DNA of 64,000 nucleotides from Candidatus Omnitrophota bacterium (GCA_041651115.1 JBAZJY010000002.1:350855-414854), one strand, 5' to 3'. Counted from the first letter of the stretch, positions 16,672 to 51,712 are shown. Numbers and translations: made by a program. Notes: a model not told the origin generated them from the letters alone.

Positions 16672-16746
16672 GCCGAGGTAGCTCAGTGGTAGAGCGCGGC
16701 CCTGAAAAGGCCGGCGTGGGGGGTCCGATTCCCTCCCTCGGCACCA
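16672..16746 (+). tRNA. tRNA-Phe (anticodon GAA)
   Basis: Cloverleaf folded by hand: acceptor GCCGAGG/CCTCGGC, D-arm GCTCAGTGGTAGAGC, anticodon loop CTGAAAA, CCA encoded. Confidence 0.85.
16724..16743. repeat. attL: 20 bp core (tccgattccctccctcggca) inside the tRNA-Phe 3' end
   Basis: Identical 20-mer recurs at 33650..33669. Confidence 0.8.
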
Positions 16747-16790: not shown

Positions 16791-16919
16791 TAGGCGTAAT
16801 TGCTTCATTTTTGAGGCACTTACGCCTTTTTTGTTGCTTTGGATAACTTTGCATGAATTTACAGGGGTTTATATAACGCATTGTCTTAACGTCACCTTAA
16901 CGTCACAAGGAGGATAATT

Positions 16920-18044
16920 ATGAAAATTCAGGAACTGAGGGAAGATTTAACAGTTTTAGGGTTAGGGGATAATCTTAATTTAGCTGTATTGCTATATTTA
17001 TCCGCAACAGCCAGAAAGACCTCGTGCAAAATCTCCGTTCTTGTTTCCGGCCCTGCAGGATTAGGTAAATCTCATCTTGCCAAGAAGATATTAGAATTAT
17101 TCCCGTCAGAAGATATTATCGTAAGCTCCCGGATGACCCCCGCCGGTCTTATGGGGCTTGAAGATTTAAGGGGCAAGATCCTGTTTATTTACGAACGTTT
17201 TGAAGATCCGCTATTTGCTCAATACATTCGGGAGCTGATGACAGAGGGAGAAGTCAGGTATACCACGGCAGACGGCGAACGGTGTCTGAAGGGCCCGGTT
17301 ACCTTAATCGAGACTACCGTTAATCACAACATCATAGGTGCCGAGAACAGGTCGAGGTGTTTTGTGGTCGGCATAAATACTTCTCTCGAAGCAAAAAATG
17401 GAATTCTGGAGAAGCAGAAGGCGTTAAGAACCATGGAAGGTTTTCGTTATCAGGAGAATTTTGATTCTATTCAGAAAAAGCATAGGGAATTCCACCAAGG
17501 GTTAGACGAGTCTTTGTGGGTTATAATTCCCTTTGCGAAGAATATCAAATTTCAAGCCTCTCCGCATCACGCCCCGCGGATACTCCAGCGTGTCCTCAAT
17601 GTTATCGCAACTATAGCATATCTAGACCAGAATCCAACTCGTGTCGTCACTGAAGGCGGCACACGCTACATTGAAGCTACAACGACTGATTTCGAAGAAG
17701 CAAGGCAGCTACTTACCAATATTCCTATTGAAGAAGACGGTTCTCTGCTTTCTTATAAGGAGGTGGAATTTATTAATATGCTAAGAAGTCAAAGAGAGAG
17801 GCTGTCCAGAAAAACCTTTTTTTCGCGCAATGATTTATTGAATGCGTTGCCTCAAGAGAGCCCTTACAGGAGCTATAAGGTTGTTTCTAAAATCCTTGCT
17901 ACCATTAGTAGGCTTGGTTTCATTGATGAACTTCCGCTGCGGGGGATAAAGAATAGGGTAGAGTATCGTTTCAATAAGGAGTTTCCGTATATGTCTGAGG
18001 GGAATTCGATGTTGACGTGCTACTCAACGCTGAGTTTGGCGTAG
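16920..18044 (+). CDS. SF3-helicase-like P-loop NTPase (phage/plasmid primase-associated type)
   Basis: Walker A GPAGLGKS, acidic Walker-B-like FIYERFED, TTVNHN motif-C-like; first gene of the island. Confidence 0.5.
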   Translation: MKIQELREDLTVLGLGDNLNLAVLLYLSATARKTSCKISVLVSGPAGLGKSHLAKKILELFPSEDIIVSSRMTPAGLMGLEDLRGKILFIYERFEDPLFAQYIRELMTEGEVRYTTADGERCLKGPVTLIETTVNHNIIGAENRSRCFVVGINTSLEAKNGILEKQKALRTMEGFRYQENFDSIQKKHREFHQGLDESLWVIIPFAKNIKFQASPHHAPRILQRVLNVIATIAYLDQNPTRVVTEGGTRYIEATTTDFEEARQLLTNIPIEEDGSLLSYKEVEFINMLRSQRERLSRKTFFSRNDLLNALPQESPYRSYKVVSKILATISRLGFIDELPLRGIKNRVEYRFNKEFPYMSEGNSMLTCYSTLSLA

Positions 18045-18080
18045 TTTTGCCATAAGGCAGGGGAAGCAGATCTTGAGTTA

Positions 18081-18815
18081 TTGAAATTAGTTAGGTTAAA
18101 AATTTTAGTTTTGCCAGTTTTCACAAAAGAAAGGAATGACAAAATGGAAGACTTTAGAATTAAATACCGGCCACAAGATATGTCAGAAATTTGGGGCAAT
18201 GAATGTTTGAAAAAAAGATGGGCTGGGTATCTAAGGAGAAAATCTCCGCCTAAATCCATAATCTTGCACGGTAACTACGGCGTAGGCAAAACTACCCTAG
18301 CAAGGATTATTGGAGGGGATATCTTAAAACTCAGAGATAATAATTTTGGTTTATCTGGGGGTTTTCACGAATTGGATTCAACTAAGCTTGATTCTGAAAA
18401 CCTAAGAGGGTTTTTATCTAAGATTACGGGATATGTTCATGGAACTACGGTGTTGTTTTTTGACGAATTCCAAAGGATGCCCCCAAAGGCCCAAGAGATA
18501 CTTTTAAAGCCCGTTGAAGAGGACGACGATCTGTTTTGTGTCTTTGCAACAACGGATATGAACAGCATAGACGGCGGTATCCAATCAAGAAGCGATAAAT
18601 TCATCATCCAAAAACCCTCAATGGCGATCCTGATAGAGAAGCTTACTGAAATAGCCGAAAAAGAGGATATTGAGATTACGAAGGAAGCCTTGGGGTTTCT
18701 CATCGAGTTAGCTGATTATTCTCCACGCGAGTGCTTGGGGAATCTCTATTCTTTTGGGGGTTCCGATGGCATTATTGACGGAAAAGTGGTGCAACAATTC
18801 TTAAACCCTGATTAA
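18081..18815 (+). CDS. AAA+ ATPase, clamp-loader (DnaX/RFC-small)-like
   Basis: HGNYGVGKTTLARII Walker A, LFFDEFQRM Walker B, CVFATTD sensor-1. Confidence 0.6.
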   Translation: MKLVRLKILVLPVFTKERNDKMEDFRIKYRPQDMSEIWGNECLKKRWAGYLRRKSPPKSIILHGNYGVGKTTLARIIGGDILKLRDNNFGLSGGFHELDSTKLDSENLRGFLSKITGYVHGTTVLFFDEFQRMPPKAQEILLKPVEEDDDLFCVFATTDMNSIDGGIQSRSDKFIIQKPSMAILIEKLTEIAEKEDIEITKEALGFLIELADYSPRECLGNLYSFGGSDGIIDGKVVQQFLNPD

Positions 18816-19036
18816 GCAATAAAATTTTAAAATTCTCCGACGAGAAAATAAATTTAACTAAAAAATCCCTTGACAAATATTATCCGCTATGGTTTTTATT
18901 TATTTGTAGATGTGATGTAACATACTGTAAATAAATGAGTTATGTGTCAGGAGCGAAGCAGGGAATTATCAATTTTTCTCTGTAGCAAGAGCAATATAGG
19001 CATTATTAAACTTTTTCTCCGTGAGAGGAATAGATA

Positions 19037-20275
19037 TTGTCCGATTCAAAGAATAGAACTCCCCGGAGCCATATTTATAGGCGTCACAGGATGCACAGCC
19101 AGTCAATCATTGAACTGGAGCAGGCGATGCTGCCCGTCAAAGCGGCGATGCAGGCGCGCGGGCTCAATATCTGCTTGGAAAAATTAGATAGCCTAATCAA
19201 TAAGATTAACCATGAAAAATCAGACATAGAGTCTAACCTTCGCTCAAGCCTCGGCATTAAGGGCGAGATAAATTTCAACAGCTCAAAGGATATCGCGGTC
19301 ATTCTTTCCGCGGCCTTAGGGGTTAAATTGCTTAAGAGCCGCAGCGGTAGATTTATTACGAACAGGCAGGTTCTCCAAAATTTCAATAATCCTTTGACTG
19401 AAACTATTGCCCAATATCGCAACCTGCAAAAGATTTTGTCTTCCCTAACGGCTGTTTATGGAGCAACTGACAAAGCGGAAGCTAAACTATCCTGCATCTA
19501 TACTGATGATTGCCCCAGCGGTCGGCTTTATACCAAAAACTACAACATCCAAGGCATCGGCGAACTCTGCCGTGGTGTCGTTTATCCTGATGAGGGCTGT
19601 TCGTTTATCTTAGCGGACTACGATAGTTTTGAATTGCGAATTCTTAGCGCACTTGCCCACGATACCTATTTTAAAGACTGCTGGTCTAAAGGTTTGGATT
19701 TACACCGTAAAGTAGTCAGTGATATGAAAGGGATTCCCTACGAATCCGTAACTGCTAAGGAACGCAAACTCGGAAAATGTCTCAATTTCGGTCTTGCATA
19801 CGGTCAGGAGCCTCATGGATTGGCGCGTAATCTCCGTATTCCCGTTTCTGAGTCTTCTAAGTTAATGGCTGGCTATAAAAACAAGATTCCTAAGATTGAA
19901 GAATTTAAACGGGAGTCAATCCGTTCAGCGCATATCACCGGCTACACTAAGACTTACTACGGTCGCAAGCGCCTGCTTCCTGAAATCCTATCTTCTAATC
20001 TCCTCGATGCAAAGAAAGCTGAGCGGCAAGTCATTAATACCAAGATCCAAGGCACAGGGGCAGACATTGTTAAATTCAGCTTAGTTAAATTACATAACGC
20101 CGGGTTTAAAATAGACACCATGTTACACGACGGGATTTTAATTACGGTCTCAGACGATAAGGTCGACAGCAGCATTCAGAAGATCAGGGAAATTATGGAG
20201 ATAGAAATTGAAGGGATGAAATTTACTACTTCTATCAAAACCGGGAAGACGTGGGGCCAATGTCACCAATCTTAA
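19037..20275 (+). CDS. Family-A DNA polymerase, polymerase domain only (no exonuclease domains)
   Basis: Motif A ADYDSFELRIL, motif B KLGKCLNFGLAYG, motif C MLHDGIL; TTG start at 19037 or ATG at 19091. Confidence 0.75.
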   Translation: MSDSKNRTPRSHIYRRHRMHSQSIIELEQAMLPVKAAMQARGLNICLEKLDSLINKINHEKSDIESNLRSSLGIKGEINFNSSKDIAVILSAALGVKLLKSRSGRFITNRQVLQNFNNPLTETIAQYRNLQKILSSLTAVYGATDKAEAKLSCIYTDDCPSGRLYTKNYNIQGIGELCRGVVYPDEGCSFILADYDSFELRILSALAHDTYFKDCWSKGLDLHRKVVSDMKGIPYESVTAKERKLGKCLNFGLAYGQEPHGLARNLRIPVSESSKLMAGYKNKIPKIEEFKRESIRSAHITGYTKTYYGRKRLLPEILSSNLLDAKKAERQVINTKIQGTGADIVKFSLVKLHNAGFKIDTMLHDGILITVSDDKVDSSIQKIREIMEIEIEGMKFTTSIKTGKTWGQCHQS

Positions 20276-20293: not shown

Positions 20294-20427
20294 TTTTTAA
20301 CTTTTTTGGGCTGGCAAAAAGCTACCTGTTTATTGTGTATGGTCATAGTTTGACTTGTGCTGGGAGATTTTATGCTGATAAATGATTTTACCTTTTGAGC
20401 CAAAAATAACCCAACCTATGCCCTGTT
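20294..20427. repeat. 134 bp direct repeat, copy 1
   Basis: Perfect match to 24463..24596; contains promoter-like TTGACT-N17-TGCTGATAAAT. Confidence 0.9.
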
Positions 20428-20439: not shown

Positions 20440-20745
20440 ATGAAACTGTTACCGAAAGAACTGGCACAAAAGATACCTAATCTCTATTCGCAGGAATATA
20501 AGGGCGAAGAGGCGTTGGTTTATATTAAATTATTCGATCCCTGCAGTAACTGGGCATGGTTTGCCACGGAATTTGATGGTGAGGATACTTTTTTCGGATT
20601 AGTGATTGGCCATTTTACAGAACTGGGCTATTTCAGCTTAAAAGAATTAGAGAGTTTTCGCAACCGTCTTGGGCTGGGTATTGAAAGGGATTTGCATTTT
20701 ACACCTATGACTCTAAAGGAAGTGAGGGAAGTAAATGGCTGCTAG
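20440..20745 (+). CDS. DUF2958-like conserved phage/plasmid protein
   Basis: LPxLYSQE...KLFDP..NWAWFATEFDGEDTFFGLV..ELGYFSL.ELE....LGLGIERDLHF pattern recalled from plasmid/ICE proteins. Confidence 0.5.
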   Translation: MKLLPKELAQKIPNLYSQEYKGEEALVYIKLFDPCSNWAWFATEFDGEDTFFGLVIGHFTELGYFSLKELESFRNRLGLGIERDLHFTPMTLKEVREVNGC

Positions 20746-20793: not shown

Positions 20794-21399
20794 ATGACAA
20801 TACAAGAGCGCTACGAAGCATTAAAAGGTAAAGTCGTTAAGAGAAAGAAGGAATTCGATTCCTTCATAAAGATGTTGGAGTCAGAGTCAAGTTGGCTCAC
20901 AAGTCCGGCAAGCACGAGGTTCCATTTGAACAAAGAAGGTGGGCTTTTGGAGCATAGTGTTGGCGTTACTGAAACTCTCCTGAAATTCAGAGAGTTCCTC
21001 GCTCCTCAAATATCAGAGGAATCTTGCGTAATTGTTGGGCTTCTTCACGATGTCGGCAAGATAGGCATGCCTGGCAAACCTAGGTATTTGAAGAATGATA
21101 ACCAATGGGAGATCGATAAACGAGGTATTACCTATAAGATCAACCCCGCAGAGGTAGATATGAATCTTGCCGCACGCAGCTTGTATCTCATTGCAAAATA
21201 TATCCCGCTTTCTGACTCAGAGGCCCAAGCTGTTCTTTATCACGATGGCCAATTTTTAGATTTTAACAAGGAAGTGGCGCATAAAGAGACGCCCTTGACT
21301 CTTTTAGCGCATTGGGCTGATTACTGGACGGCGCATATCTATGAAGAAGGCCGTAGCATTAATGAAGATAGTGATTATTATACTGGAGATAGAAAATAA
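20794..21399 (+). CDS. HD-domain phosphohydrolase
   Basis: H..H, LLHDVGK and a late D motif of the HD superfamily. Confidence 0.7.
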   Translation: MTIQERYEALKGKVVKRKKEFDSFIKMLESESSWLTSPASTRFHLNKEGGLLEHSVGVTETLLKFREFLAPQISEESCVIVGLLHDVGKIGMPGKPRYLKNDNQWEIDKRGITYKINPAEVDMNLAARSLYLIAKYIPLSDSEAQAVLYHDGQFLDFNKEVAHKETPLTLLAHWADYWTAHIYEEGRSINEDSDYYTGDRK

Positions 21400-21401: not shown

Positions 21402-22355
21402 ATGTATCAACCAATGCATTCAGATTTTCTTATACACTGGACAGGCAAGGACATTGATGCAAAATATGACCCTAGGTGGTATACAGGACATTCATCGCGG
21501 ACAAGTGAGAAGGCTATCAAGTTATATTTGCAGCGTCTTAAAGGCATCTTATACCACGGCTTGTGGATGACAAAGCGCAGAGAAGATGAGACGGTTGTTA
21601 TTTATGATAACAATGGGAAGAGAAGAAAAATTAAGAGACCAGAAACAGCGAGGATATGTTTTACTGAATTGCGGCTGTCTGACGCGCGGGCTCATGCGAA
21701 AAAGTTTGGAAGGTTAGGTATTGGATTTAAAAGATTTTTTGTATTCAACCTTTTAGGAGCTCCCGTGGTCTATTTTCATCCTCAGAGAGCTAACTGGTTT
21801 TTTCCTCCTTATTTCGACTGGTTCAAAAAGATTGGCAAGGAAGCGTATTTCTCATGTTTTTTGAAAAAGATGGGGGAGAAAGATAGGAAAGACAGGACTT
21901 GGAAGTATAAGTTTTTCGATGAATCAGAATGGCGCGTAGTGTATTCTCCAGAGATTAAAGAAAAATTAGTAAGTATGGGGAGAACTGATGTATGTTCCGG
22001 ATTTAAAGAATCCGGAGATAAAGAATTTAAGAGGCTTGAAAGATATTTAGAAAAGACTGGCATAAAGGAGAGGCCGAGTTATCTCATTCCTATAAATCCA
22101 TCTCGGTGGTTCGCTATGATCATTTATCCTAGTTTAGCTGTAAAAGTCATAGCCGAAAGGGATCCCGATATTAGAAGAATTATAAATAAACTGAAATCTG
22201 GCAGAGAGAGCGTGGATGGGATGGAAGCAACCATCAGCAAAGATTGGCCATCAGGGGTATCTTCCGTCGGAGCTATCGGGAAGGCCAAATCGGCTTCCCT
22301 TGAAGATTTTAATCTGCCAATTCAGATTGACTTAGACGCTTGTAGAAATTTCTAG
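21402..22355 (+). CDS. Hypothetical protein (317 aa), function unknown
   Basis: ORF translationally coupled to the HD gene (stop and start 2 nt apart). Confidence 0.5.
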   Translation: MYQPMHSDFLIHWTGKDIDAKYDPRWYTGHSSRTSEKAIKLYLQRLKGILYHGLWMTKRREDETVVIYDNNGKRRKIKRPETARICFTELRLSDARAHAKKFGRLGIGFKRFFVFNLLGAPVVYFHPQRANWFFPPYFDWFKKIGKEAYFSCFLKKMGEKDRKDRTWKYKFFDESEWRVVYSPEIKEKLVSMGRTDVCSGFKESGDKEFKRLERYLEKTGIKERPSYLIPINPSRWFAMIIYPSLAVKVIAERDPDIRRIINKLKSGRESVDGMEATISKDWPSGVSSVGAIGKAKSASLEDFNLPIQIDLDACRNF

Positions 22356-22371
22356 AAACTAGAAAGGCAGT

Positions 22372-23136
22372 ATGAATATACTTATTACAAATGACGATGG
22401 TATCAATTCTGATGGTATCTTCACTTTGTTCGAAGCGGTTAAAGAGCTTGGTAATGTAACCGTTGTAGCCCCTGATTCAGAACGAAGTGCCGCGGGCCAT
22501 GCTATAACGATATCCGATCCTTTGCGCGTGAAGACAGTGAACCGTAACGGTAAGTTTTTTGGATATGCGTGTTCAGGGACACCGGCGGACTGCGTCAAAC
22601 TAGCTGTAAGGGCATTGATGAAGGATAAACCCGACATAGTCATATCCGGGGTTAATCTGGGCCCAAACACTGGTTTTAGTGTTTTATACTCTGGTACGGT
22701 ATCAGGAGCAACTGAGGGTGCAATATTAGGCATACCAGCCTTTGCAATATCTCTGGGAACTTTCGATAACCCTGATTTTAGTATAGCAGCTGAATTTGCC
22801 AAAAAATTAGTAGTTCTGCTTAGAGAAAAAGGTCTTCCGAAGGGAACCCTGTTAAATGTCAATATCCCTGCTGTAAAAAATAGAAATGATATCAGAGGCA
22901 TAAAGGTTACTACTCAAAGCAAGACTTCATTGGTAGAGCATTTCGATAAGCGGGAGGATCCCCGTAAACACGTCTATTACTGGCTTACAGGTGAGCTGAT
23001 AGAGTTGGACGGGGAGGAAGATAGTGACATCAAAGCACTACGGGATAATTTTATCTCCATAAGCCCCGTTCATTGTGATATGACTAACCGCGCCTTTATC
23101 GATGAGCTAAAGAAGTGGGATTTTGAGAGGCGTTAA
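22372..23136 (+). CDS. surE: 5'/3'-nucleotidase SurE
   Basis: MNILITNDDGINSDGI N-terminus and a SurE-like core. Confidence 0.85.
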   Translation: MNILITNDDGINSDGIFTLFEAVKELGNVTVVAPDSERSAAGHAITISDPLRVKTVNRNGKFFGYACSGTPADCVKLAVRALMKDKPDIVISGVNLGPNTGFSVLYSGTVSGATEGAILGIPAFAISLGTFDNPDFSIAAEFAKKLVVLLREKGLPKGTLLNVNIPAVKNRNDIRGIKVTTQSKTSLVEHFDKREDPRKHVYYWLTGELIELDGEEDSDIKALRDNFISISPVHCDMTNRAFIDELKKWDFERR

Positions 23137-24206
23137 AATATATTAAAGGCCCGGCTGCAACCCAAGCTTTTGTTTTTTAAATACCAGCCTAAATTATCCA
23201 ATTCTCTATTGTCTTTTACGATCTGTTCGTAAATGTCCTCCCAAGTCAGATGGGTAAACCGCTTTTTGTATTCAGCTTTTAACATAGAGCGGACATTACG
23301 CATAACAGGCATGCTTTCAGGCTCGCCGCGCTTTAAATTCATCGCGTGCCTGTTCCTTAAGTTCACTACATACCATCTTTTCGCGCCTTCCAAATGAGCC
23401 ATTGATGCAGCGAATACAATATTCCTAAATAGCTGCTCGTAGAATGGGTTCGGCATATCACTAAAATCAAATATGCTGTTAGTATCTATTAGTTTGTTAT
23501 GGGTGCAGTATCTCGTTATTGACCTATCTGCTGCTTTTGGCTTTTCGCCCTCAACATCTTCTTTTTCTTTTGCTATAGAGTTTTTACTCCCAAACTTAGC
23601 CTCTATACATATGATAACCTTATTCGGGACGACAAGCATTATGTCCGGTTCAGTAGCGAATCGCTTTATATCACTTTCAAGGTGCTTGCGAACATCTAAT
23701 AGAGGGGCGTAAGGCGTGAATTTATTGTTTTTAAGATCAATCTTTCCGCCCCACAGATACAAGTCTACCTTATCCTTTATATCTTCATTGATTATTTGGC
23801 TCGCTAGTTTATTTAGCGCCAGTCCGTTTGATAGTAGCTCCGTAAATACATTGTAAGATACCGCATCTTCGCTGTTTTCATAGCACAGCCTTCCAGATTC
23901 CATTTTGTTGCCTTTTTTGAAGAAATTTGCTATGTAGTATTCTCCATTGAATAATAAATTACGCTTGGTGGCGGTCAGCAGGTTTGAGTCAAAGGGCCCA
24001 TTATAATATACGAATCCATTGGTATGTATCCGCAGGCCGTGTTCAGGGCAGAAGGGTAAATATCTCATTTTACCCTTGAAGCGCTGGAAGGGAACCTTAT
24101 GGCTATGGGTATCTGATGAGCAGTTTTTGATTGGGCAGCTATTAGGAAGTCTCGTTTTTTGAAGGTCGTTTCTGAAGAATGATATTGTGCAGCTTGAATC
24201 GGGCAT
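23133..24206 (-). CDS. PD-(D/E)xK-type nuclease with N-terminal Cys-rich (Zn-ribbon-like) region
   Basis: PDIMLVV...IICIEAKF matches a D..(D/E)xK core; CPIKNC...CPEHG; convergent with surE. Confidence 0.5.
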   Translation of the reverse strand: MPDSSCTISFFRNDLQKTRLPNSCPIKNCSSDTHSHKVPFQRFKGKMRYLPFCPEHGLRIHTNGFVYYNGPFDSNLLTATKRNLLFNGEYYIANFFKKGNKMESGRLCYENSEDAVSYNVFTELLSNGLALNKLASQIINEDIKDKVDLYLWGGKIDLKNNKFTPYAPLLDVRKHLESDIKRFATEPDIMLVVPNKVIICIEAKFGSKNSIAKEKEDVEGEKPKAADRSITRYCTHNKLIDTNSIFDFSDMPNPFYEQLFRNIVFAASMAHLEGAKRWYVVNLRNRHAMNLKRGEPESMPVMRNVRSMLKAEYKKRFTHLTWEDIYEQIVKDNRELDNLGWYLKNKSLGCSRAFNIF

Positions 24207-24462
24207 AGGTTATTTTTCATTGTAGCTCCCTAAAATAATAAGGGAGCGCATATCTGCTACCGGCAACGTTCAAGTAAATCCGATAGAGCTGCATTTCTCC
24301 CTGCCCTTTCGGGCAACGAAACAGCTCCACCATACTTGAACGTTCACAGGGCTCTCCCCTGTGTTATGGTAGAAACGAACTGCTCCTGATTGTAAAAACT
24401 AACTAAAGTATATCAGCCGGTTAGGTTATTGTCAATTGAGCTATGTTAGGAAGCATAGTTAT

Positions 24463-24596
24463 TTTTTAACTTTTTTGGGCTGGCAAAAAGCTACCTGTTT
24501 ATTGTGTATGGTCATAGTTTGACTTGTGCTGGGAGATTTTATGCTGATAAATGATTTTACCTTTTGAGCCAAAAATAACCCAACCTATGCCCTGTT
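24463..24596. repeat. 134 bp direct repeat, copy 2
   Basis: Perfect match to 20294..20427. Confidence 0.9.
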
Positions 24597-24648
24597 TCTA
24601 AATATATCCAATCTTAATCAGGCACGTGATGCTTCTAAGTAAAAGCCC

Positions 24649-24676
24649 TTGACTTTTTCAAAATGTAGCATATAAT
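24649..24676 (+). promoter_or_regulatory. Strong sigma70-like promoter (TTGACT, 16 nt spacer, TATAAT)
   Basis: Near-consensus hexamers read from the sequence. Confidence 0.55.
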
Positions 24677-24683
24677 TTTATTC

Positions 24684-24795
24684 AAGATACGATATAGTGG
24701 TGCGTTACGGAGAGGGAACCTCCACTTTAAAAAAGTAAAATCTCCACGAGCCGATTGCTCATGCACATTTGCGCTTGTGGGGATTTTTTATTTTA
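24684..24795 (+). ncRNA. Candidate sRNA (about 110 nt) with its own promoter and intrinsic terminator
   Basis: No ORF; internal ggagaggg/cctcc hairpin; terminator stem tctccacgagc/gcttgtgggga plus TTTTTTATTTT at 24741..24795. Confidence 0.4.
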
Positions 24796-24911
24796 TAGGG
24801 AAATTAGCTTGGTTAATTGACAAGACGAAAGGTAGGTGAATAATCTTTTAGGTATCTTGAGCGACCGAGTTTAAGTATAAAAACTATAAATATTGAAAAC
24901 GGAGGACTTAA

Positions 24912-25142
24912 ATGGGTAAAAATCAGCACGTTGTGCCTTATGGTGATAAGTGGGCAGTTAGAGGTGAGAAAAACAGCAGGATAACTTCTGATCACCACAC
25001 GCAGGGAGCGGCGATTAGTGCTGCAGTAAAAATAGCCAAGCACGAGAAATCAGAAGTAGTGATACACGGCAGGGATGCGAAGATTCGGGATAAAGATAGC
25101 TACGGATCTGATTCTTGCCCGCCAAGAGACAAAAAATATTAA
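24912..25142 (+). CDS. DUF2188-like small protein (paralog 1)
   Basis: NQHVVPYGDKWAV...EVVIHGRDAKIRDKDSYG pattern; paralog at 27304. Confidence 0.6.
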   Translation: MGKNQHVVPYGDKWAVRGEKNSRITSDHHTQGAAISAAVKIAKHEKSEVVIHGRDAKIRDKDSYGSDSCPPRDKKY

Positions 25143-25272
25143 AATACTAGAGGGGCATGAAAATGCCCCTCAGTTCTAATGTATTTTTGTGGCTTATAGA
25201 AGGAAATGGTAATATAATACAATATGAATCATAAGGGATAGTATATACAGATGCAGGACAAGATATCCTAAA

Positions 25273-26019
25273 ATGAAAAATATTGAAACTATAGGTCTTT
25301 TTAAAAAAATATTACAGCCCGCATTTATTATAACTATTGCTACGTGTGTAGGATATCTATGGGGTTGGCATTATATAGATGGTTATTTAGAACGTTTTGG
25401 ATTAAATCATGATTCCTTTGAATTTTCTTTAACCTATTATTTGAATCAGTCGTTCTTTATATCCATTTTTCTTGCAATGATTTTGTTTTTTTCCATAGGT
25501 AGAAAAAAAGATTCTCAGTTGACTATCCCTCAAGCCTTTCAGCAGAACTCAATCATTTTATTATTTTTAGGAATTGGCTTGTCGATGGCATTTAAAGATT
25601 TTCCCTCCCCGAATGCAATAATGATACTGTTAAATTCATTAATTTTGTTAATTTATTTTGTTAGATTAAGCTGTAAGAAAAAAACGATTATCTCGGTTAT
25701 TGAGAATGAAGGGTCGCCAATAGTATTTCTTTTAGCTTTCTTATTAATGATTTTACTAGGACTTTTGATTAGTAGAGATTTCGGAGAAGAACATGCCCGG
25801 AGGACCATCAGTGGCGCACTTAATAATTTATCTTCGATCTCTTTTGTATCTGATAATCCATCAATCACTGATCTCAACAAAAAAGAATTAAATCTTATTT
25901 TTTATCATAATAGTAACTATTATTTAGTTGAAAAAGAACAGCCAGCGCCTAAGTTCCCTAAAATTTTTATTGTTCCAGATAAGAATATAGAGTATGTAAT
26001 TTGTAAAAAATTTAATTAA
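25273..26019 (+). CDS. Hypothetical polytopic membrane protein (AT-rich gene)
   Basis: Multiple hydrophobic segments; very low GC compared with its surroundings. Confidence 0.5.
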   Translation: MKNIETIGLFKKILQPAFIITIATCVGYLWGWHYIDGYLERFGLNHDSFEFSLTYYLNQSFFISIFLAMILFFSIGRKKDSQLTIPQAFQQNSIILLFLGIGLSMAFKDFPSPNAIMILLNSLILLIYFVRLSCKKKTIISVIENEGSPIVFLLAFLLMILLGLLISRDFGEEHARRTISGALNNLSSISFVSDNPSITDLNKKELNLIFYHNSNYYLVEKEQPAPKFPKIFIVPDKNIEYVICKKFN

Positions 26020-26126
26020 TTTATGATTATATAGTAACTCAATGAACCTATGTTAATGGTGATTGTAGGCGTTGGTAAATATCATGGACAGAGAACACGC
26101 TAAACAAAAATGATTAAAGGAACTAT

Positions 26127-27293
26127 ATGCGCAGAGGCATAGTTGATATCGTACAGGAGAATAGCAGGGACATAGAAAGAAAAATTCTTTCTGAGTTCGC
26201 GACAAAAAGTTGTGATGCTTTAAGGCGGTTACCGGAGAAATTAGGCGTTAGGCCCGATTTCTTTAGGGACACGGATAGGATATTGCATTCTAAATGTTAT
26301 GCGAGATATATTGATAAAACACAGGTATTTTATTTATTTGATAATGATGATATTACTCATCGAGTATTACATGTTCAATTTGTCTCTAAGATTGCCAGAA
26401 CCATTGGTAGAGCTTTAAAACTGAATGAAGATTTAATTGAAGCAATAGCGTTAGGGCACGATGTTGGGCACCCTCCCTTTGGGCATGAAGGTGAAAGTTA
26501 CTTAGACGAACTTTGTTTGCATTACAAAATAGGTCATTTTGTTCATAGTGTTCAAGGAGTAATTTTTTTAGACAAAATTGAGAAAAGAATGGAGATAAAA
26601 CCATTGAATTTAAGTTTACAAGTTTTAGATGGCATACTTTGTCATGATGGCGAGAAATTTAATGATTATTTAATACCTCAAAGAAAGAAAACATGGTCAA
26701 CACATTATAATGAACGAAAGGAGAAGATGTTTAACAAGCAAGTAGCGCTCGTTCCAATGACCATGGAGGGTTGTGTTGTTAGATTTGCGGATGTTGTAAG
26801 CTATATTGGAAGAGATATTGAAGACGCTATAACGCTAAGACTAATAAAAAGACAAGATCTGCCAAGGGAATGTACAAAGGTATTAGGGGATAATAACAGA
26901 GATATAATTAACACATTAGTTACCGATTTGATAGAAAACAGCAAAAGAATTGGCGACAGGATATATTATAGTAAAAGAACCTCTAAGGTTTTAAAGAAAC
27001 TTAAGAAATTTAATGACAAAAATATCTACTTGAATAAAAAAATAAAGAGAGAATCCCCAAAAAATAAAAAATTATATACTCTTCTATTCGAAGAATTTCT
27101 TCATGATATAAAAGTAAAAAACAGTAGATCAGAAATATTTACTCAATGGAGTGACATTAAAGATGCCAAGTATATTTCAAAATGTAGACACCCAGAAATC
27201 GTACGCGATTTTTTGTCATCTCTTACAGATGATTATTTTATAGGGCTTTTTGAACGGAAATTTTTCCCAAGAAGATTTGGAATACATTTCTAA
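26127..27293 (+). CDS. dGTP-triphosphohydrolase-like HD-domain protein (Dgt family-like)
   Basis: H..RxxH at the N-terminus, ALGHDVGHPPFGHEGE signature of the dGTPase family, later D motif. Confidence 0.7.
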   Translation: MRRGIVDIVQENSRDIERKILSEFATKSCDALRRLPEKLGVRPDFFRDTDRILHSKCYARYIDKTQVFYLFDNDDITHRVLHVQFVSKIARTIGRALKLNEDLIEAIALGHDVGHPPFGHEGESYLDELCLHYKIGHFVHSVQGVIFLDKIEKRMEIKPLNLSLQVLDGILCHDGEKFNDYLIPQRKKTWSTHYNERKEKMFNKQVALVPMTMEGCVVRFADVVSYIGRDIEDAITLRLIKRQDLPRECTKVLGDNNRDIINTLVTDLIENSKRIGDRIYYSKRTSKVLKKLKKFNDKNIYLNKKIKRESPKNKKLYTLLFEEFLHDIKVKNSRSEIFTQWSDIKDAKYISKCRHPEIVRDFLSSLTDDYFIGLFERKFFPRRFGIHF

Positions 27294-27303
27294 AGGAGGA
27301 GAG

Positions 27304-27534
27304 ATGAGTAGAAACCAACATGTCGTTCCCTACGGAGACAAATGGGCTGTGCGAAAAGAAGGGAATACTAGGATAACATCTTCACACATAACTCGGAGAG
27401 ATGCTATCCATACTGCGAATAGAATTGCTTCGTCGGAAGCTTCTGAAGTGGTTATACATGGTAGAGACGGGAGAATTCGAGATAAAGACAGTTACGGTTA
27501 CGATGCGTTACCACCACGATGCAGGAAATACTAA
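27304..27534 (+). CDS. DUF2188-like small protein (paralog 2)
   Basis: MSRNQHVVPYGDKWAV...EVVIHGRDGRIRDKDSYG; RBS aaggagga; ORF-track start 27250 rejected. Confidence 0.6.
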   Translation: MSRNQHVVPYGDKWAVRKEGNTRITSSHITRRDAIHTANRIASSEASEVVIHGRDGRIRDKDSYGYDALPPRCRKY

Positions 27535-27686: not shown

Positions 27687-27935
27687 TCAAGCTAATTTAC
27701 ACTCGAATTCATCTAAGTCCTGCCGGCTTTTAGCAATGATTTCTTTTATGCATGTCTGGCAGTAAACCTTTCTTCCCATGCTGCCGGGAATAGGAACTAC
27801 AATGCATACAGTTCCTCCGTAAATCGCTGTGTTGCACCTTTTGCAAGTTCGTTTTCCTTTTGCAGTGTCTAATTTTGGCGCTCCATGTGTTCCATTGATA
27901 AGAGAAGGACATTTTCCACGTTTTTTACTTATCAC
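27687..27935 (-). CDS. Small Zn-ribbon protein (82 aa)
   Basis: CKRCN...CIVV...CQTC Cys quartet; directly downstream of the helicase and overlapping it. Confidence 0.45.
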   Translation of the reverse strand: MISKKRGKCPSLINGTHGAPKLDTAKGKRTCKRCNTAIYGGTVCIVVPIPGSMGRKVYCQTCIKEIIAKSRQDLDEFECKLA

Positions 27936-29952
27936 CCTTAGCCTCCTTTTTAGTTAAGCGTCTTGTTAGGACATTGAGAATATTGTCAAGGGCTTCTATC
28001 GCTTTTACATAGTCTTCAGTTCGTAACTTTTCCCGTTCGCCTTTTTCAATTCCGAGCTGCTTATTTACCTCATGATTTATAAGTTGGACAGCGGCTGCAA
28101 AGTTAGGCCCAGTGACTCCACTACTCTGAGCAAGTTTATAGGCTAAATCTTTTCCGTCAAATGAGATGTCCAAGCGATTCAACAATAGTTTTGCCGCTCG
28201 TTTTACCTCTTCATGCAAACGTCGCTTCGCCTCGTTCCTTTGCCGTTGGGGAATTACAGGGAAAGGTATGGTGGATTCCACTTTGTTTATTTTATCCCCT
28301 TGTTTATTTTTGAGGAATTCTGCTATGTCTTGAGCATCAATTCCAAGTGACTCAGCGGTAGCTTTCATTTCTTCGATAAGTATCTCGTCTTCCACATCAA
28401 TGAAATGTTCCTGTAGGAAGCTATCCACTATTTCATTGCGAATGATCGTAGATTCACTAAGTTTTAATCTTGTACTACCTTCAAGCACCTCTCGAGGAGG
28501 CTCGGGTTCTTTGCCTTTAATAATATCTGTGAAGAATTCTCGGTCGTCCCTGTCAATTTCACGGAAATCAGCAAGATGGGTATCTATGTTAAGCCCAATA
28601 TGTGTTACTATGTGACCATAATTATCAGGGTGTCGAGGGTCATTTTGGACGATGACACGCATTACTCGACCAACGAATTGGACATACGGTGGTAGGGTGC
28701 GGAAAGGCCTAAATATAGCTGCAACACTTAAATGAGGGTGGTCAAATCCCTCGCCGAGCATTTGAACTTGGATAATACAATCTAAGGCGCCCGCTCTCAA
28801 TTTATTTAAGACAGCATCTTGCTCATCGGGTAGCATTTTACTATGGATTTCCGCTGCTTCATAACCACGCTCAGCATATAGAGAGCGTATTGCCTTTGCA
28901 TGATTTACTGAACACGCAACTGCTATTAGTTGGTGCTTTGTTCCAGATTGCCGCAGATGTTCGAGTTTGTCGAGACTTGCGTCTACGATATTTTTATTAC
29001 AGACTGGGGATAAAGCCACACCACGACTAAACCATTCTTCATCTTTTAACACCAATACTTCTTCAAGTGTGTGGTATTTTTCATCACCTTCATATGTAAA
29101 ATAGAGTTCTTTAGGTGCGACATATGTTGCCTGTAATTTTTTTATGTAGCCTTTTATCATTGCCCGTTTGAATGAATACTTGTAAATTAGTTCACCTTCA
29201 ATTTCTTGTTGGTCACTTCTGAATGGCGTAGCAGTTAAATTAACAACCTTTGCATCCGGGAATCTACTAAATACTTTTTTCCAACTCGGGGCCGCACTAT
29301 GGTGTCCTTCGTCTACCAGAATCATATCAAAGAAATTATTTGTAAACTGTGGGAGCCAGCGGTCGGCGCTACTCGCCAGTTGCTGTATATTTGTCAAAAC
29401 AAAATGCGACTGTTCGCAATCATGGATGTTGGCATCGATGCTATCGAGAATAGCAAGATACGGGCCGGCTAAGGTTACGTCCGGATTCAGCACCCGGCAT
29501 TTAAACCAGAAGCAGTTTCTACGATTGGCGATATCTAAAGCCTTTCTTAATTCATCTCTGATGGTGAGATTTGGCGCGATCACGAGGATCCTTCCTTGGG
29601 CAATTCCAAGTGGAAGTAACGTAATGAGCCCTGATTTTCCACATCCAACCGGTAATTGAATTAACGCTTTTTTGGCTCCTTTCTCGAAAAAATTACGGGT
29701 TGCTATGTATGCTTCTTTCTGTGGGTCTCTTAATAGTAAATTGTCTTCTATTTTGAAATCCAGCGAAGCAAAGAAATTACCCATGGATTTATTAGCTTTT
29801 ATCCACTTGTCTAATTCAAGAACTTGGAATCGCCACATTTTTCCTACTTTGTGAGCAGGTATCCGGTTGCTCTGCGCAAGTGCGTATAAATTCGTTATGC
29901 TGATATCAAGATATTTTGCTGCTTCCTCTGCGTTTAGCCATTCTTCTCTCAT
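27925..29952 (-). CDS. HTH (excisionase/MerR-like) + SF2 DEAH/ResIII-type helicase
   Basis: N-terminal LNAEEAAKYLDISITNLY...HKVG.MWRF HTH; Walker A PVGCGKSG; DEGH box; TATP motif III; QFVGRVMR motif VI. Confidence 0.75.
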   Translation of the reverse strand: MREEWLNAEEAAKYLDISITNLYALAQSNRIPAHKVGKMWRFQVLELDKWIKANKSMGNFFASLDFKIEDNLLLRDPQKEAYIATRNFFEKGAKKALIQLPVGCGKSGLITLLPLGIAQGRILVIAPNLTIRDELRKALDIANRRNCFWFKCRVLNPDVTLAGPYLAILDSIDANIHDCEQSHFVLTNIQQLASSADRWLPQFTNNFFDMILVDEGHHSAAPSWKKVFSRFPDAKVVNLTATPFRSDQQEIEGELIYKYSFKRAMIKGYIKKLQATYVAPKELYFTYEGDEKYHTLEEVLVLKDEEWFSRGVALSPVCNKNIVDASLDKLEHLRQSGTKHQLIAVACSVNHAKAIRSLYAERGYEAAEIHSKMLPDEQDAVLNKLRAGALDCIIQVQMLGEGFDHPHLSVAAIFRPFRTLPPYVQFVGRVMRVIVQNDPRHPDNYGHIVTHIGLNIDTHLADFREIDRDDREFFTDIIKGKEPEPPREVLEGSTRLKLSESTIIRNEIVDSFLQEHFIDVEDEILIEEMKATAESLGIDAQDIAEFLKNKQGDKINKVESTIPFPVIPQRQRNEAKRRLHEEVKRAAKLLLNRLDISFDGKDLAYKLAQSSGVTGPNFAAAVQLINHEVNKQLGIEKGEREKLRTEDYVKAIEALDNILNVLTRRLTKKEAKGDK

Positions 29953-30052: not shown

Positions 30053-30296
30053 ATGGGGTAGATATTTAAATCTAAAAGATTTCTTTGGGTAGCTGCGTTG
30101 AAATACTCAAGTTTTCTCTAAAAAACTTTTACCTTTTTAGCATAACTCCCCTCGGCATAAGCAGTTAGTAAATTCCTTCCATTCATTTCAGAGTTAATTT
30201 CCGTCGGTAAAATTACATAAAAGGTTAAAACTTTTTTACATTTTTCATTGACAAATAAGTACCATATGGTTCTTATATTGTTAGGAGGTGATTGTT

Positions 30297-31112
30297 ATGA
30301 ATTCCGACGAGATTGCGGTTGGCTATATACGAGTTAGCAGTATCAATCAGGTGGAAAATGGTGGTGGTTTGGCTATCCAGAGGAAGAAGATAACCAACTT
30401 CTGCAGAGAAAAAGGCTACAATCTAGAACGTTTCTACGAAGAAAGGGGAATTTCCGGCAGCATTAAAGAACGCCCTGCGTTATTAAGATTGTTAAAGGAC
30501 TGCGAGTCTGGTTTAATCAAAAGGGTAGTAGTTTTTCGTCAGGATAGGTTAGCTCGTGAATTAACAGTTTCCCTCTGGCTCGAGACTCAATTCAAGAAAT
30601 ATGATGTAGCAGTCAGCTCAGTTCTGGATCCAGAACTCGATATGAATGACCCGCTGCAGCTCGCTTTTAAAAGGCTGATTGATGTGTTTGCTGAATTAGA
30701 GAAAACACTTATTGTGACCCGTCTTAGAGAAGGCCGGGTTGATAAGGCCGAGAATGGACGTAGAGCTGTCGGTGCAATTGCTTTTGGCTATTATAAAGAG
30801 AAAGACGGTTTGGTTGTTAACCTTGAAGAATCCGAATGGGTGAAAAAGATTTTTCGGAACGCAGCTAAGGGAAAGAAATACTCAGAGATTGTGGCGATGC
30901 TTAAAAAGAACGGCGTAGTTACACGGCGAAAGAAACCGTTCAGTATTGAAACAGTTAAGTATGTCTTACGAAACTCTTTTTATTATGGTGAGTCAACCTA
31001 CGGCGATATAAAGAGCAGGGGGGAGCATAGGCCTATTATTAGTAAACGACTTTTTGTTAGAGTTCAAAAGGTCAAAAGGAAAGAAGTATTGTTACCAGCT
31101 AGGGTTTCGTAG
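30297..31112 (+). CDS. Serine recombinase (resolvase/invertase family)
   Basis: VGYIRVSS catalytic Ser motif, RLARE; RBS aggagg 8 nt upstream of ATG 30297. Confidence 0.8.
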   Translation: MNSDEIAVGYIRVSSINQVENGGGLAIQRKKITNFCREKGYNLERFYEERGISGSIKERPALLRLLKDCESGLIKRVVVFRQDRLARELTVSLWLETQFKKYDVAVSSVLDPELDMNDPLQLAFKRLIDVFAELEKTLIVTRLREGRVDKAENGRRAVGAIAFGYYKEKDGLVVNLEESEWVKKIFRNAAKGKKYSEIVAMLKKNGVVTRRKKPFSIETVKYVLRNSFYYGESTYGDIKSRGEHRPIISKRLFVRVQKVKRKEVLLPARVS

Positions 31113-32095: not shown

Positions 32096-32320
32096 ATGAA
32101 GGCAATCTGGAATGGCGAAAAGTTATTGATTAGACGCAAACAAGTAGGGTTAACTATGGCTGAATTAGCCGCAAAAGTGGATTGTGACCGGCCATTGGTG
32201 TCAATGTGGGAAGCAGGCAAGGTAGCTCCGTCCGGGCATTTTCTTGTGATGCTCGGCATCACATTGAATATTGAGCCGAAAGAGTTTTATAATCTGGAGG
32301 ACGAAGGAGTGCAGCTATGA
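32096..32320 (+). CDS. XRE/Cro-type HTH regulator
   Basis: LTMAELAAKVDCDRPLVSMWE HTH. Confidence 0.6.
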   Translation: MKAIWNGEKLLIRRKQVGLTMAELAAKVDCDRPLVSMWEAGKVAPSGHFLVMLGITLNIEPKEFYNLEDEGVQL

Positions 32321-32508
32321 GTAACCTTTTAACTCCAGAGCAAGTATGCGAGAGGTATGGTATAAGCCGGTGGACGCTCTATCAGTGGACATCCAAGCAT
32401 CTTATACCATATCTCAAGATTAGAGGGCTAAACCGTTTCAGGGAAGAAGATCTTGAGAAGTGGGAAGAACAAAATCTGGTAAGCGATGGGAAGGCTGAAT
32501 TGGTATGA
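32317..32508 (+). CDS. xis: Excisionase / AlpA-like HTH protein
   Basis: QVCERYGISRWTLYQW motif; immediately upstream of the integrase and overlapping it. Confidence 0.6.
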   Translation: MSNLLTPEQVCERYGISRWTLYQWTSKHLIPYLKIRGLNRFREEDLEKWEEQNLVSDGKAELV

Positions 32509-33572
32509 GACAGCGTTATCGAATGCCAAAATCTATTTACCCCCGTGGCAACTGGTATTGCTTTAAGGTAACTACTTCTTATGGCAAGAGAGTCGAGGTT
32601 AAGTCAGCCACCATGGAAGAGGCGCGTAAGAAACGCAACGATATAGAGCGTCAGATATTCAGTGCCGTGTCTGGAGATCCATCCTATAGAGTTAGCCTTG
32701 AGCATGGAATAGGGTTTTGGCTAAAAATTAAGAAAGGAAGTATCGACGATACCTCATATGATAGATACCGGGGATGTTTAGATAACTTCCTTGATTATAT
32801 TAAGGCAAAACGCTCCGATTTACAATATTTCGACCAAATAAAAGCGGAGGACATTAAGGCATTTATGGACTATCGGATCGAAGAGAAGGGGCGGGCGACT
32901 AAGACCGTGAATTCTGAAAGGCTGGCTTTATACAACTTATTTCTTACCTTGATTAAACATAAGAAAATTGAAGGTAGTAATCCCGTGGAAAATGTTGACC
33001 CATTAAAAATGATTAAGGTCCAAAAGAGGCATGCTCTTTCTGATGAGGAATTGTTGAAATTTCTTGAGGGTGCCAAGGCAGAAAGCGGGGCTATTAATTG
33101 GTATGCTATCTTTCTTACCTTATATATAACCGGCATGAGAAGGGATGAGGTTCGGAAGATGGAGAAAACAGCAATAGACCTGTCCAGAAATCTGATAATT
33201 ATTTTGAACACCAAAACCGATAAGCCAAAGATCATACCGATACATCCTGAATTGCGGCCAGTATTGCAGCAGGCGTTGGGGCAGTCCAATAGCGGCTTGG
33301 TATTTCCTAACTCTAAAGGCGGGCTGCTTCATAAGAACAAAATTCGGGATAAGATGATTCAGATATGTGAGAGGGTCGGTATCCCTAAAGCAACGGTTCA
33401 CGATTTACGCCATACATTCGCGAGCCGCCCAGAATTATCCGGTATGGCCAAGCAACTTATAGGCGGTTGGAGCAGCAAGCAGGTAATGGAGAAAACCTAT
33501 ATTCACGCCCCCGAGGATTATGTTCGAGATGAGTATTTTAAGGTTAAGTTCATACCGAAGGCAGGAAACTAA
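32505..33572 (+). CDS. int: Tyrosine integrase (phage integrase family)
   Basis: Conserved R...HDLRHTFAS...Y catalytic region; adjacent to attR. Confidence 0.85.
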   Translation: MRQRYRMPKSIYPRGNWYCFKVTTSYGKRVEVKSATMEEARKKRNDIERQIFSAVSGDPSYRVSLEHGIGFWLKIKKGSIDDTSYDRYRGCLDNFLDYIKAKRSDLQYFDQIKAEDIKAFMDYRIEEKGRATKTVNSERLALYNLFLTLIKHKKIEGSNPVENVDPLKMIKVQKRHALSDEELLKFLEGAKAESGAINWYAIFLTLYITGMRRDEVRKMEKTAIDLSRNLIIILNTKTDKPKIIPIHPELRPVLQQALGQSNSGLVFPNSKGGLLHKNKIRDKMIQICERVGIPKATVHDLRHTFASRPELSGMAKQLIGGWSSKQVMEKTYIHAPEDYVRDEYFKVKFIPKAGN

Positions 33573-33649
33573 TGTCACGCTATCGTCACGAAAGGATGTT
33601 GCAAATGTCAGAACCTTCTGATAATATAGATAATTATGCAAAACCGGGA

Positions 33650-33669
33650 TCCGATTCCCTCCCTCGGCA
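33650..33669. repeat. attR: second copy of the 20 bp tRNA-Phe 3' core
   Basis: tccgattccctccctcggca identical to 16724..16743. Confidence 0.8.
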
Positions 33670-40264: not shown

Positions 40265-40433
40265 TAAATGCGCTTAAGATCACACGTGGCGCATTTATCC
40301 TGAGGCCATCCGGGCATAGTAGAGTAGGGCCGAAGGATCTCGCATTTACTTTTTGCTGGCGTAGCTCAGTTCCCGCCACAGGCGGGTCCGCCTCCGGCGG
40401 AGGCAGGCAGGGAGCAGCGCCTATTTTATTTAA

Positions 40434-40508
40434 CGCCGACGTAGCTCAGTTGGTAGAGCAAGTGTTTCGTAAACACTAGGTCGAGGGTTCGAATCCCCCC
40501 GTCGGCTC
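40434..40508 (+). tRNA. tRNA-Thr (anticodon CGU)
   Basis: Acceptor GCCGACG/CGTCGGC, D-arm TAGCTCAGTTGGTAGAGC, anticodon loop TTCGTAA, T-loop TTCGAAT, CCA encoded. Confidence 0.8.
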
Positions 40509-40513
40509 CATTT

Positions 40514-51593: not shown

Positions 51594-51712
51594 GCTGGAA
51601 AATTCATTTACAAGCATTATTCGTTCTGTTAATATAGTAAGTAAGAGATCGGACAGTTTGAAGTTGAAGCTGCTTCTTTGACAGCGAACAGTAGGAAATA
51701 ACGCGCGATATT

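Follow-up and report, generated by a model that had tools for sequence, protein, structure and literature searches.

What do a helicase-like ATPase, a clamp-loader-like ATPase and a family-A DNA polymerase, encoded one after the other, do for an integrative element in Candidatus Omnitrophota, a phylum whose members are ultra-small and for the most part uncultured bacteria? The three genes lie on the plus strand at positions 16,920 to 20,275 of a 64,000-nucleotide stretch of one Omnitrophota genome (GCA_041651115.1 JBAZJY010000002.1:350855-414854), here called the window and numbered from its first letter. An earlier note on this DNA had described three consecutive open reading frames (ORFs) in this interval, and all three are present at the coordinates given there. 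Taken together, the gene content, the structural models and the comparison with related loci suggest that the three genes are probably the replication module of a 16.9-kb element integrated in tRNA-Phe.

The module lies at one end of a tRNA-Phe island

The insertion site of the element is the tRNA-Phe gene (anticodon GAA; 16672..16746, plus strand; ARAGORN, with an Rfam tRNA score of 63.5 bits). Repeat and pattern searches place the attL core in the 3' 24 nt of this gene (16720-16743, plus strand). The attR core, a copy matching at 23 of the 24 positions, lies 16,926 bp away at 33646..33669 on the same strand, and the number of such matches expected by chance in the pattern search is 0. Between the repeats the GC fraction is 0.33-0.44, versus 0.46-0.53 outside. 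Close to attR, the plus strand encodes an HTH_3 regulator (32096-32320), an HTH_17 excisionase-like protein (32317-32508) and a tyrosine integrase (32505-33572). The interval therefore has each of the features by which a tRNA-integrating island is recognised: repeats of a tRNA 3' end, an integrase with an excisionase, and a deviating composition. The placement of the three genes at the attL end of an island, as first proposed, agrees with the positions of the tRNA and of the distal repeat.

Directly inside attL stand two tandem copies of the 11-nt repeat CTTAACGTCAC (16885..16906, plus strand), and a related tandem pair, CTAATGTCACG / CTATCGTCACG, lies inside attR (33569..33590, plus strand). 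A sister element, represented by loci L002 and L003, has the same att architecture at tRNA-Ser, with analogous GGTGGTGAAA repeats at each end. These tandem 11-mers flanking the att cores are probably arm-type binding sites for Int and Xis. No iterons were found in the intergenic regions, the tandem 11-mers adjoining the att sites instead, and in an Rfam scan the tRNA was the sole structured RNA found. Pfam and PHROG scans of the island ORFs gave no packaging or capsid-redirection genes. The island thus lacks the genes that would mark a phage satellite of the PICI or P4-like type, and no relatives were found in IMG/VR.

A family-A polymerase reduced to its polymerase domain

The third gene encodes a 394-aa family-A DNA polymerase that consists of the polymerase domain only (19091..20275, plus strand). 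Its reading frame reaches back to a TTG at 19037, which would give 412 aa; the start is most likely the ATG at 19091, because the homologues are ~392 aa long (380-400 aa in about 80 of them). The Pfam search that had been called for gives a match to DNA_pol_A (PF00476) at E 4.7e-70 and 236.9 bits (cut-off 34.3), covering profile positions 3-380 of 381. The best solved relatives are the large fragments of Pol I enzymes, namely E. coli Klenow (1e-44), Bst (1e-41) and Taq (1e-37), with which thumb, palm and fingers align throughout. The enzyme differs from these in its ~28-29% identity, in the missing exonuclease domains, in a G, S or A after the motif C Asp, and in a six-residue deletion.

The absence of exonuclease domains, also part of the initial description, follows from the alignment itself. 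It begins at Klenow-chain residue 205 and runs to the C-terminus, with only ~8 residues ahead of it, and because this leaves no room for either a 5'-3' or a 3'-5' exonuclease domain, the enzyme must lack both. When all the other island ORFs were scanned with Pfam, no gene for an exonuclease came up, and a split-off exonuclease encoded close by, of the kind T7-like phages have, was rejected since none was found on the island. The T7-like split PolAs (cluster #5, Czernecki et al. 2023, PMC10201439) likewise have a polymerase domain without 3'-5' exonuclease; there the exonuclease is an adjacent gene in a phage genome, whereas here the island has none and the protein is Pol I-like. In the text searched of this 19-cluster reclassification (PMC10201439), the exonuclease-less PolAs are only split T7-like genes or CCPols, and Omnitrophota are unmentioned.

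Conservation of the active site was assessed in a motif table from a 40-sequence family alignment (39 regular members and one aberrant). The ADYDSFELR, RKLGKCLNFGLAYG and LHD segments of the polymerase align to Klenow D705/E710, R754/K758/F762/Y766 and H881/D882, respectively. Across the family, bar the one aberrant sequence, the motif A Asp and Glu (ADY..FELR), the O-helix R/K/F/Y, the Gln of QGT and the His-Asp of motif C are conserved. Both catalytic Asp residues, in motifs A and C, are intact; their disruption would have refuted the reading of the earlier note. The earlier account of a 412-aa PolA with motifs A, B and C thus stands for the catalytic Asp residues and the O-helix, and is to be amended in its length, 394 aa, and in motif C, which reads HDG.

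Several identities for this polymerase were considered and rejected. It is not a bacterial DNA polymerase I equivalog: its scores fall under the curated cut-offs (237 versus 720 bits for PRK05755, 208 versus 600 bits for TIGR00593), only profile positions 486-889 are covered, and the exonuclease domains are missing. Nor is it the housekeeping Pol I of Omnitrophota, as the gene lies in an att-flanked low-GC island and the tRNA next to it varies between genomes. A full-length Pol I of 928 aa, only 28% identical to the short polymerase, is also encoded on one host contig, and because that host has its own full-length enzyme the short polymerase is accessory. A DpoZ/Z-genome system (PolA with an HD dATPase) does not fit, the DpoZ model scoring 78 bits versus 237 for Pol I, and a DRT 'RTasPolA' defence polymerase is indicated by a weak PADLOC cross-match only (1e-27, 95 bits).

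The AT-rich spacer upstream of the polymerase gene (18816..19090, plus strand) was aligned across seven loci. It contains a conserved promoter-like CTTGACAAAT box followed by a conserved GTGATGTAACATA...AATAAATGAGTTAT leader.

An MCM-like ATPase encoded by the first gene

The first gene (16920..18044, plus strand) encodes a 374-aa AAA+ ATPase with a C-terminal winged helix. By sequence, the protein has weak P-loop matches in Pfam and no Pfam MCM match, and a comparison with PDB sequence profiles gave nothing significant. The structure prediction that the earlier note had asked for, an AlphaFold (AF2) model built on 19 homologues, yields a confident AAA+/winged-helix model (pLDDT 87, pTM 0.83). 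All of its top 50 Foldseek matches in the PDB (50/50) are eukaryotic MCM2-7 or archaeal MCM, at E 6e-10 to 5e-7, probability 1.0 and TM(query) 0.40-0.56. Between its Walker B and sensor-1 strands the model forms a hairpin (residues 111-124). A beta-hairpin placed ahead of sensor 1 characterises the replicative-helicase AAA+ group and is common to MCM and SF3 helicases.

As compared to established MCM proteins, the model has the AAA+ fold with the pre-sensor-1 hairpin, the sensor-2 lid and the winged helix, and is without the N-terminal OB-fold/Zn domain, a canonical Walker B (DE) and a sequence-profile match. Viral models in BFVD that match the protein are primase-helicases and fusellovirus ORFs (best E 6e-18); those with D5-like, NrS-1-like and DUF3987 helicase domains match at E 1e-6 to 1e-9, and the best viral matches are unnamed. 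Pfam, PHROG and NCBIfam gave no SF3 or D5 match, and no SF3 helicase is among the top 50 PDB matches. Judged from the model, MCM-like is a better label than SF3-like, though the two groups neighbour each other. The previous reading of a GPAGLGKS P-loop protein with an SF3/primase flavour was approximately right in this sense, MCM being the better structural match.

In the family alignment GPAGLGKS, E92, R146 (SRC-like), R220 and R224 are invariant. The 374-aa protein begins ~40 residues ahead of its P-loop, and a profile search of 1.84 billion representatives returned 5154 relatives, many of them 700-950 aa long with the shared domain at the C-terminus. Four of ten sampled relatives carry DnaG-type primase domains N-terminally (two with Zn-ribbon, DNAG_N and Toprim, one with Toprim only and one with the Zn-ribbon only). 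The modelled fold makes the 374-aa protein a putative helicase or initiator of the element.

A DnaX/RFC-small-like ATPase encoded by the second gene

The second gene (18144..18815, plus strand) encodes a 223-aa DnaX/RFC-small-like AAA+ module comprising domains I-II, without the collar. Its frame reaches back to a TTG at 18081, giving 244 aa; because the homologues are 220-226 aa long and begin at the Met encoded at 18144, this ATG is most likely the start. The product matches the phrog_5846 'clamp loader' profile at 3.4e-35, TIGR02397 dnaX_nterm at 1.3e-21 (77 bits, below the curated cut-off of 250) and RFC small PRK00440 at 2e-14 (53 bits, below the cut-off of 303). Its best PDB match is 2chg, the two-domain fragment of the Archaeoglobus RFC small subunit (1.8e-11), with residues 5-218 aligned on 5-221. 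The profile matches, which a protein unrelated to clamp loaders should have failed to give (phrog_5846 and TIGR02397 above all), together with Walker A and DEF support the DnaX/RFC-small assignment first made for a 244-aa ATPase; the true length is 223 aa.

The motifs are those of DnaX gamma/tau and RFC small subunits: KYRP, a Walker A (GNYGVGKTT), a Walker B (FFDEF), an SRC-type arginine (QSRS) and a sensor-2 Arg in the lid. The 15 family sequences compared show no variation at R149, in the Walker A residues or at E108, and little or none in KYRP, DE and the lid Arg. The DnaX-type Zn module (EPCGNCRNC) is retained in the homologues of loci L001 and L097. Unlike its DnaX and RFC counterparts, the protein ends after domain II, at the equivalent of RFC-small residue ~221, is encoded without a clamp, and has its gene tied to the helicase-like gene, not to that of the polymerase.

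One polymerase behind alternative initiators

A database search with the polymerase gave 83 matches at E<=1e-10, of which ~80 are polymerase-domain-only proteins of 345-450 aa with 37-68% identity. Nearly all come from metagenome-assembled genomes (MAGs) of Candidatus Omnitrophota. Species-representative genomes added a few more homologues in MAGs labelled Planctomycetales/Pirellulales (Planctomycetota). The next relatives beyond this clade are ordinary PolAs at <=30% identity, and no relatives were found in IMG/VR, among INPHARED phages or among PLSDB plasmids. In a metagenome scan, two of 80 loci belong to the polymerase family, the remainder being almost all ordinary PolA. The ORFs are intact in ~80 genomes, and the polymerase family has a mean column identity of 55% with invariant catalytic residues.

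Synteny was compared across 20 distinct loci, the window included. The order helicase-like gene, AAA+ gene, PolA gene is found in the window and in L001, L002, L005, L007, L010, L096, L097 and L102. In nine loci a tRNA or tmRNA gene stands 180-330 bp upstream of the module (Phe, Gln, Ser in four cases, Lys, Asn and tmRNA). Two further genes belong to the backbone: a serine recombinase with Resolvase and Recombinase domains (30288..31112, plus strand), present in most sister elements, and a gene for an HTH_17 plus ResIII/SNF2-type helicase (27925..29952, minus strand), whose product is 84% identical in the L002 element. The cargo varies between loci and includes type I-III restriction-modification (RM) systems, TIR, AbiJ and E2/ThiF genes. 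Because the cargo changes from locus to locus while the polymerase module persists, the module is part of the backbone.

This bears on whether the polymerase, with or without its neighbours, could instead be cargo serving repair, damage tolerance, mutagenesis or anti-phage defence and not element replication. Defence-type genes do abound, with AbiGi-like, REase-ARP and HD genes here and RM, TIR, AbiJ and E2/ThiF genes in the sisters. Auxiliary cellular PolAs exist as well (APEX and CHEAP, PMC10201439), an enzyme that cannot proofread and has a non-canonical motif C would be prone to errors, and there is the weak 'RTasPolA' match at 1e-27. Yet the PADLOC score of 95 bits lies far below the 237 bits for DNA_pol_A and is explained by shared PolA homology. 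The polymerase, moreover, keeps a fixed place by the att/tRNA end in all loci while the defence genes vary, and in every case it is coupled to some kind of replication initiator. We therefore regard a cargo role as improbable.

The coupling is most evident where the initiator is exchanged. L004, L006, L009 and L100 have neither a helicase nor an AAA+ gene, and a ~155-aa protein is encoded directly ahead of the polymerase (L004 9400-9882, L006 9441-9905, L009 9399-9863, L100 9507-10004). This protein is an HUH Rep: it has the three rolling-circle motifs (FxTxTF-like, HIHAL and YYLxxK), matches PF23343 REP_ORF2-G2P at 1.2e-6 (above threshold in L009), and matches phrog_3584 'replication initiation protein'. 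In L017 and L098 a small DUF6573-like ORF occupies the initiator place ahead of the polymerase. Replacement of the helicase/AAA+ pair by an HUH Rep in sister elements marks the polymerase as a replication gene. The AAA+ gene, in turn, is present solely together with a helicase-type gene; none of the Rep-type or other PolA loci examined has it. Since it tracks the helicase-type gene, it is likely to serve the helicase or initiator, not the polymerase.

Proposed mode of replication and the evidence against it

If the module replicates the element, the process likely involves: excision by Int and Xis, yielding a circular form that would be copied by the element's own proteins; recognition of the origin, its unwinding, or both, by the MCM-like AAA+ protein via its winged helix; assistance from the collar-less DnaX-like AAA+ protein, which would be a loader or cofactor of the helicase or initiator and not a canonical clamp loader; and synthesis by the exonuclease-free family-A polymerase, which, expressed from its own conserved promoter and leader, would copy the element without proofreading. 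That the Klenow polymerase domain can fold and be active on its own is reported for HoLaMa (PMC6457538). What we infer from the genes and their context is that the element is excised and replicates outside the chromosome, how the three proteins share the work, and where the primers come from. A role of the module in replication is well supported by context; the element may also replicate autonomously after excision, as first suggested, and no excised or circular form was found.

A number of observations weigh against this reading, and the first group concerns the proteins. Motif C is HDG here and HD[G/S/A] in 39/39 regular family members, versus the canonical HDE (Klenow E883). The motif-2 region 'NLQNIPVRNEEGRRIR' (the 'NLQNIPVR' motif) is six residues shorter and reads 'Q.IPE..R' in the family, the deletion sitting around the position of Klenow R668. 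Given these changes at motif C and motif 2, normal activity of the polymerase is not guaranteed. In the helicase-like protein the Walker B Asp is replaced by Y, H or Q, and the Glu alone is retained. Three homologues of this protein (L001 7477-8439, L097 253-1161, L008 8347-9330) are without ~60 residues of the ATPase core and without Walker A; they keep the N-terminal helices, the lid and the winged helix. Their sequences suggest that a former helicase has come to act purely in origin binding or as an adaptor. Because three loci have a homologue with no ATPase core, helicase activity is not universally required.

For the second ATPase the point at issue is clamp loading. The collar domain (domain III) is what assembles the clamp-loader pentamer; the gene 2 family (220-226 aa) lacks it, and distant relatives of 306-318 aa have it. 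No sliding-clamp gene was identified on the element. From these features a clamp-loading role of the gene 2 product appears doubtful. The notion of a clamp-loader paralog paired with PolA is weakened: the collar is missing, the gene co-occurs with the helicase gene, and the element encodes no clamp.

The remaining points against replication as a free element concern the element itself. No primase, no SSB (a protein that binds single-stranded DNA) and no clamp was identified on it. L003 gave no circular form, being only a sub-fragment of the integrated L002 element, and a protein scan of IMG/VR gave no relatives. The attP junction expected of the window element is …AATTATGCAAAACCGGG[A/G]TCCGATTCCCTCCCTCGGCA joined to CCATATAAAAACGAG…, and a pattern scan for such junctions was empty. 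No empty site was found; a look-up of the flanking transporter gene returned the same contig only. No iteron-type origin was found either, and the conserved spacer ahead of the polymerase resembles a promoter with a leader.

Some of these features might be read as signs of decay, the module being what is left, without function, of a former plasmid or phage replication system; this would fit the deleted ATPase cores of some sister helicase homologues and the missing third acidic residue of the polymerase motif C. The intact ORFs, column identity and invariant catalytic residues described above run counter to decay, as does the conserved promoter and leader upstream of the polymerase. HD[G/S/A] is family-wide, hence ancient and tolerated. 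A remnant is accordingly very improbable.

Relation to SCCmec and to other elements

The closest known analogue of the module is the SCC/SCCmec core, so far reported only in Bacillota, in which an MCM-like self-loading helicase, Cch, accompanies CCPol-MP, a primase made of an A-family polymerase and an SSB (PMC7581432, PMC10061031). Both are integrative islands with serine recombinase(s) and conflict-system cargo, and in both the core locus couples a family-A polymerase shortened at its N-terminus to an MCM-like AAA+ helicase, in the place of the primase of related elements. The differences are several. The hosts are Bacillota there and Omnitrophota/Planctomycetota here; integration is into rlmH/ssrA via a large serine recombinase there and into tRNA/tmRNA genes via a tyrosine integrase here; and the gene order is Pol, SSB, helicase there, as opposed to helicase, AAA+, Pol here. 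The Omnitrophota module has no recognised OB-fold partner and has an extra DnaX-like AAA+ protein, and its polymerase keeps no remnant of the exonuclease helices, carries Phe at B3 and reads HD[G/S/A] at motif C.

One possibility raised by this analogy would be that the polymerase acts as the primase or primase-polymerase of the element, replacing a DnaG domain, with host Pol III extending its primers or short strands. By the SCCmec logic, CCPol-MP stands where SaPIs have a primase (PMC7581432, PMC10061031), and the combination sought in a PolA-SSB primase system, a truncated A-family polymerase with a helicase on a serine-recombinase element, is found here. Relatives of the helicase are fused to DnaG, and here DnaG is missing and the truncated polymerase is in the module. 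No other primase was identified on the element, and the altered motif C and motif 2 could mean a changed substrate mode.

Set against this, no OB-fold SSB partner was identified. DUF2958, the one small neighbour that is constant, has no copy in several loci and is common on unrelated plasmids and phages; its single-sequence AF2 model, at pLDDT 39, gives no usable fold. The polymerase keeps none of the exonuclease-domain helices by which CCPol binds MP, and at B3 it has the Phe of Pol I and not the Leu of the CHEAP/CCPol neighbourhood (both as described in PMC10201439). Rep-type sister elements, furthermore, need no primase for the leading strand, yet keep the polymerase. By analogy alone a primase role is conceivable, and on this balance we consider it unlikely; the reading preferred here is that the polymerase copies the element.

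Casposons, pipolins, PICI/SaPI and P4-like elements resemble the island in being small, site-specific integrative elements, often at tRNA genes, with replication protein(s) of their own. Casposons and pipolins have a family-B polymerase, whereas the polymerase here is of family A, and no Cas1 or protein-priming signature is present; PICI/SaPI and P4-like satellites have a primase-helicase Rep, and here packaging and capsid-redirecting genes are absent. A tentative extension of the replication-module reading would treat the islands as a distinct 'self-synthesising' class, defined by a proofreading-free family-A replicase with HD[G/S/A] and interchangeable initiators, possibly starting chains without a conventional primase. 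This is possible, and we hold it with reserve. The initiators of such a class may be the MCM-like helicase with the collar-less DnaX paralogue, the HUH Rep, or the DUF6573-like protein.

Neighbouring genes and cargo

Immediately downstream of the polymerase gene lies a 134-nt perfect direct repeat (copy 1, 20294..20427, plus strand), the second copy of which is found 4169 bp from the first, at 24463-24596. The two copies bracket a block of DUF2958, HD, AbiGi-like, SurE and REase-ARP genes, and the core of the repeat (…TAAATGATTTTACCTTTTGAGCCAAAAATAACCCAACCTAT…) is kept in five sister elements, where it directly follows the stop codon of the polymerase gene. The repeat may act as a promoter/leader, or as a hot spot of recombination at which cargo is exchanged.

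The DUF2958 protein (20440..20745, plus strand; Pfam 1.5e-14) is encoded after the polymerase in 10 of the 20 loci (8 of 17 distinct loci in a count without the window and L102), and also occurs on unrelated plasmids and phages; a PDB profile search with it was uninformative. On the Planctomycetes plasmid pPla86_1 (L104 5983-7089), DUF2958 forms the N-terminal part of a protein of 368 aa encoded beside relaxase and MobC genes. This hints that DUF2958 serves mobile elements generally, in establishment or as a leading-region function.

Of the genes next to that of the polymerase, the best conserved encodes a 201-aa HD-domain protein, HD201 (20794..21399, plus strand). It follows the polymerase in 8 of the 20 loci (window, L001, L005, L008, L010, L011, L012 and L102) and is 66-84% identical where the accompanying polymerase shares 44-62%. 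It is kept even where the polymerase identity is 44-46%, and persists in the distant Pirellulales-labelled loci. Profile comparison with the PDB gave a marginal, non-significant HD-GYP-like match. A MobH-type relaxase or nickase identity found no support, MobH giving E 0.005 over 30 residues and TraI_2 E 0.1 in one of five members.

The cargo block proper (21402..27534) encodes an AbiGi-like protein, SurE, REase-ARP (minus strand), two DUF2188 proteins, a membrane protein and an HD/HD_assoc phosphohydrolase. The two DUF2188 genes (24912-25142 and 27250-27534) share 68% identity with each other. A convergent pair of SurE (5'/3'-nucleotidase family) and REase-ARP nuclease genes occurs in the window (22372-24206), in L096 (12207-13755) and in L001 (13469-14883), and this recurring cassette may be a two-gene conflict system.

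Elsewhere in the window, a second low-GC stretch (0.36-0.43; 51712-56000) begins right after a tRNA-Met gene and encodes AIPR abortive-infection and RES-domain proteins; it may be another small defence islet. At 40345-40510 there is a 27-nt partial duplicate (78%) of the tRNA-Thr 5' region, 80 nt upstream of the tRNA-Thr gene.

Implications

The polymerase clade appears undescribed, being absent from the 19-cluster family-A reclassification as far as the text searched of PMC10201439 goes. With it, the logic of an island carrying its own helicase and A-family polymerase is extended from Bacillota to phyla of the PVC group, and to tyrosine-integrase elements that target tRNA genes. The family offers a set of natural experiments, in which one polymerase stands behind three initiator modules, helicase genes lose their ATPase core and a clamp-loader module is stripped of its collar. 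The enzyme itself, 394 aa of polymerase domain with an HDG motif, is a compact candidate for studies of fidelity, strand displacement and possible priming.

For Omnitrophota, the module is a first point of entry to the movement and upkeep of defence islands in this phylum. If the proposal of a 'self-synthesising' class were true, these islands would be the family-A counterpart of casposons and pipolins.

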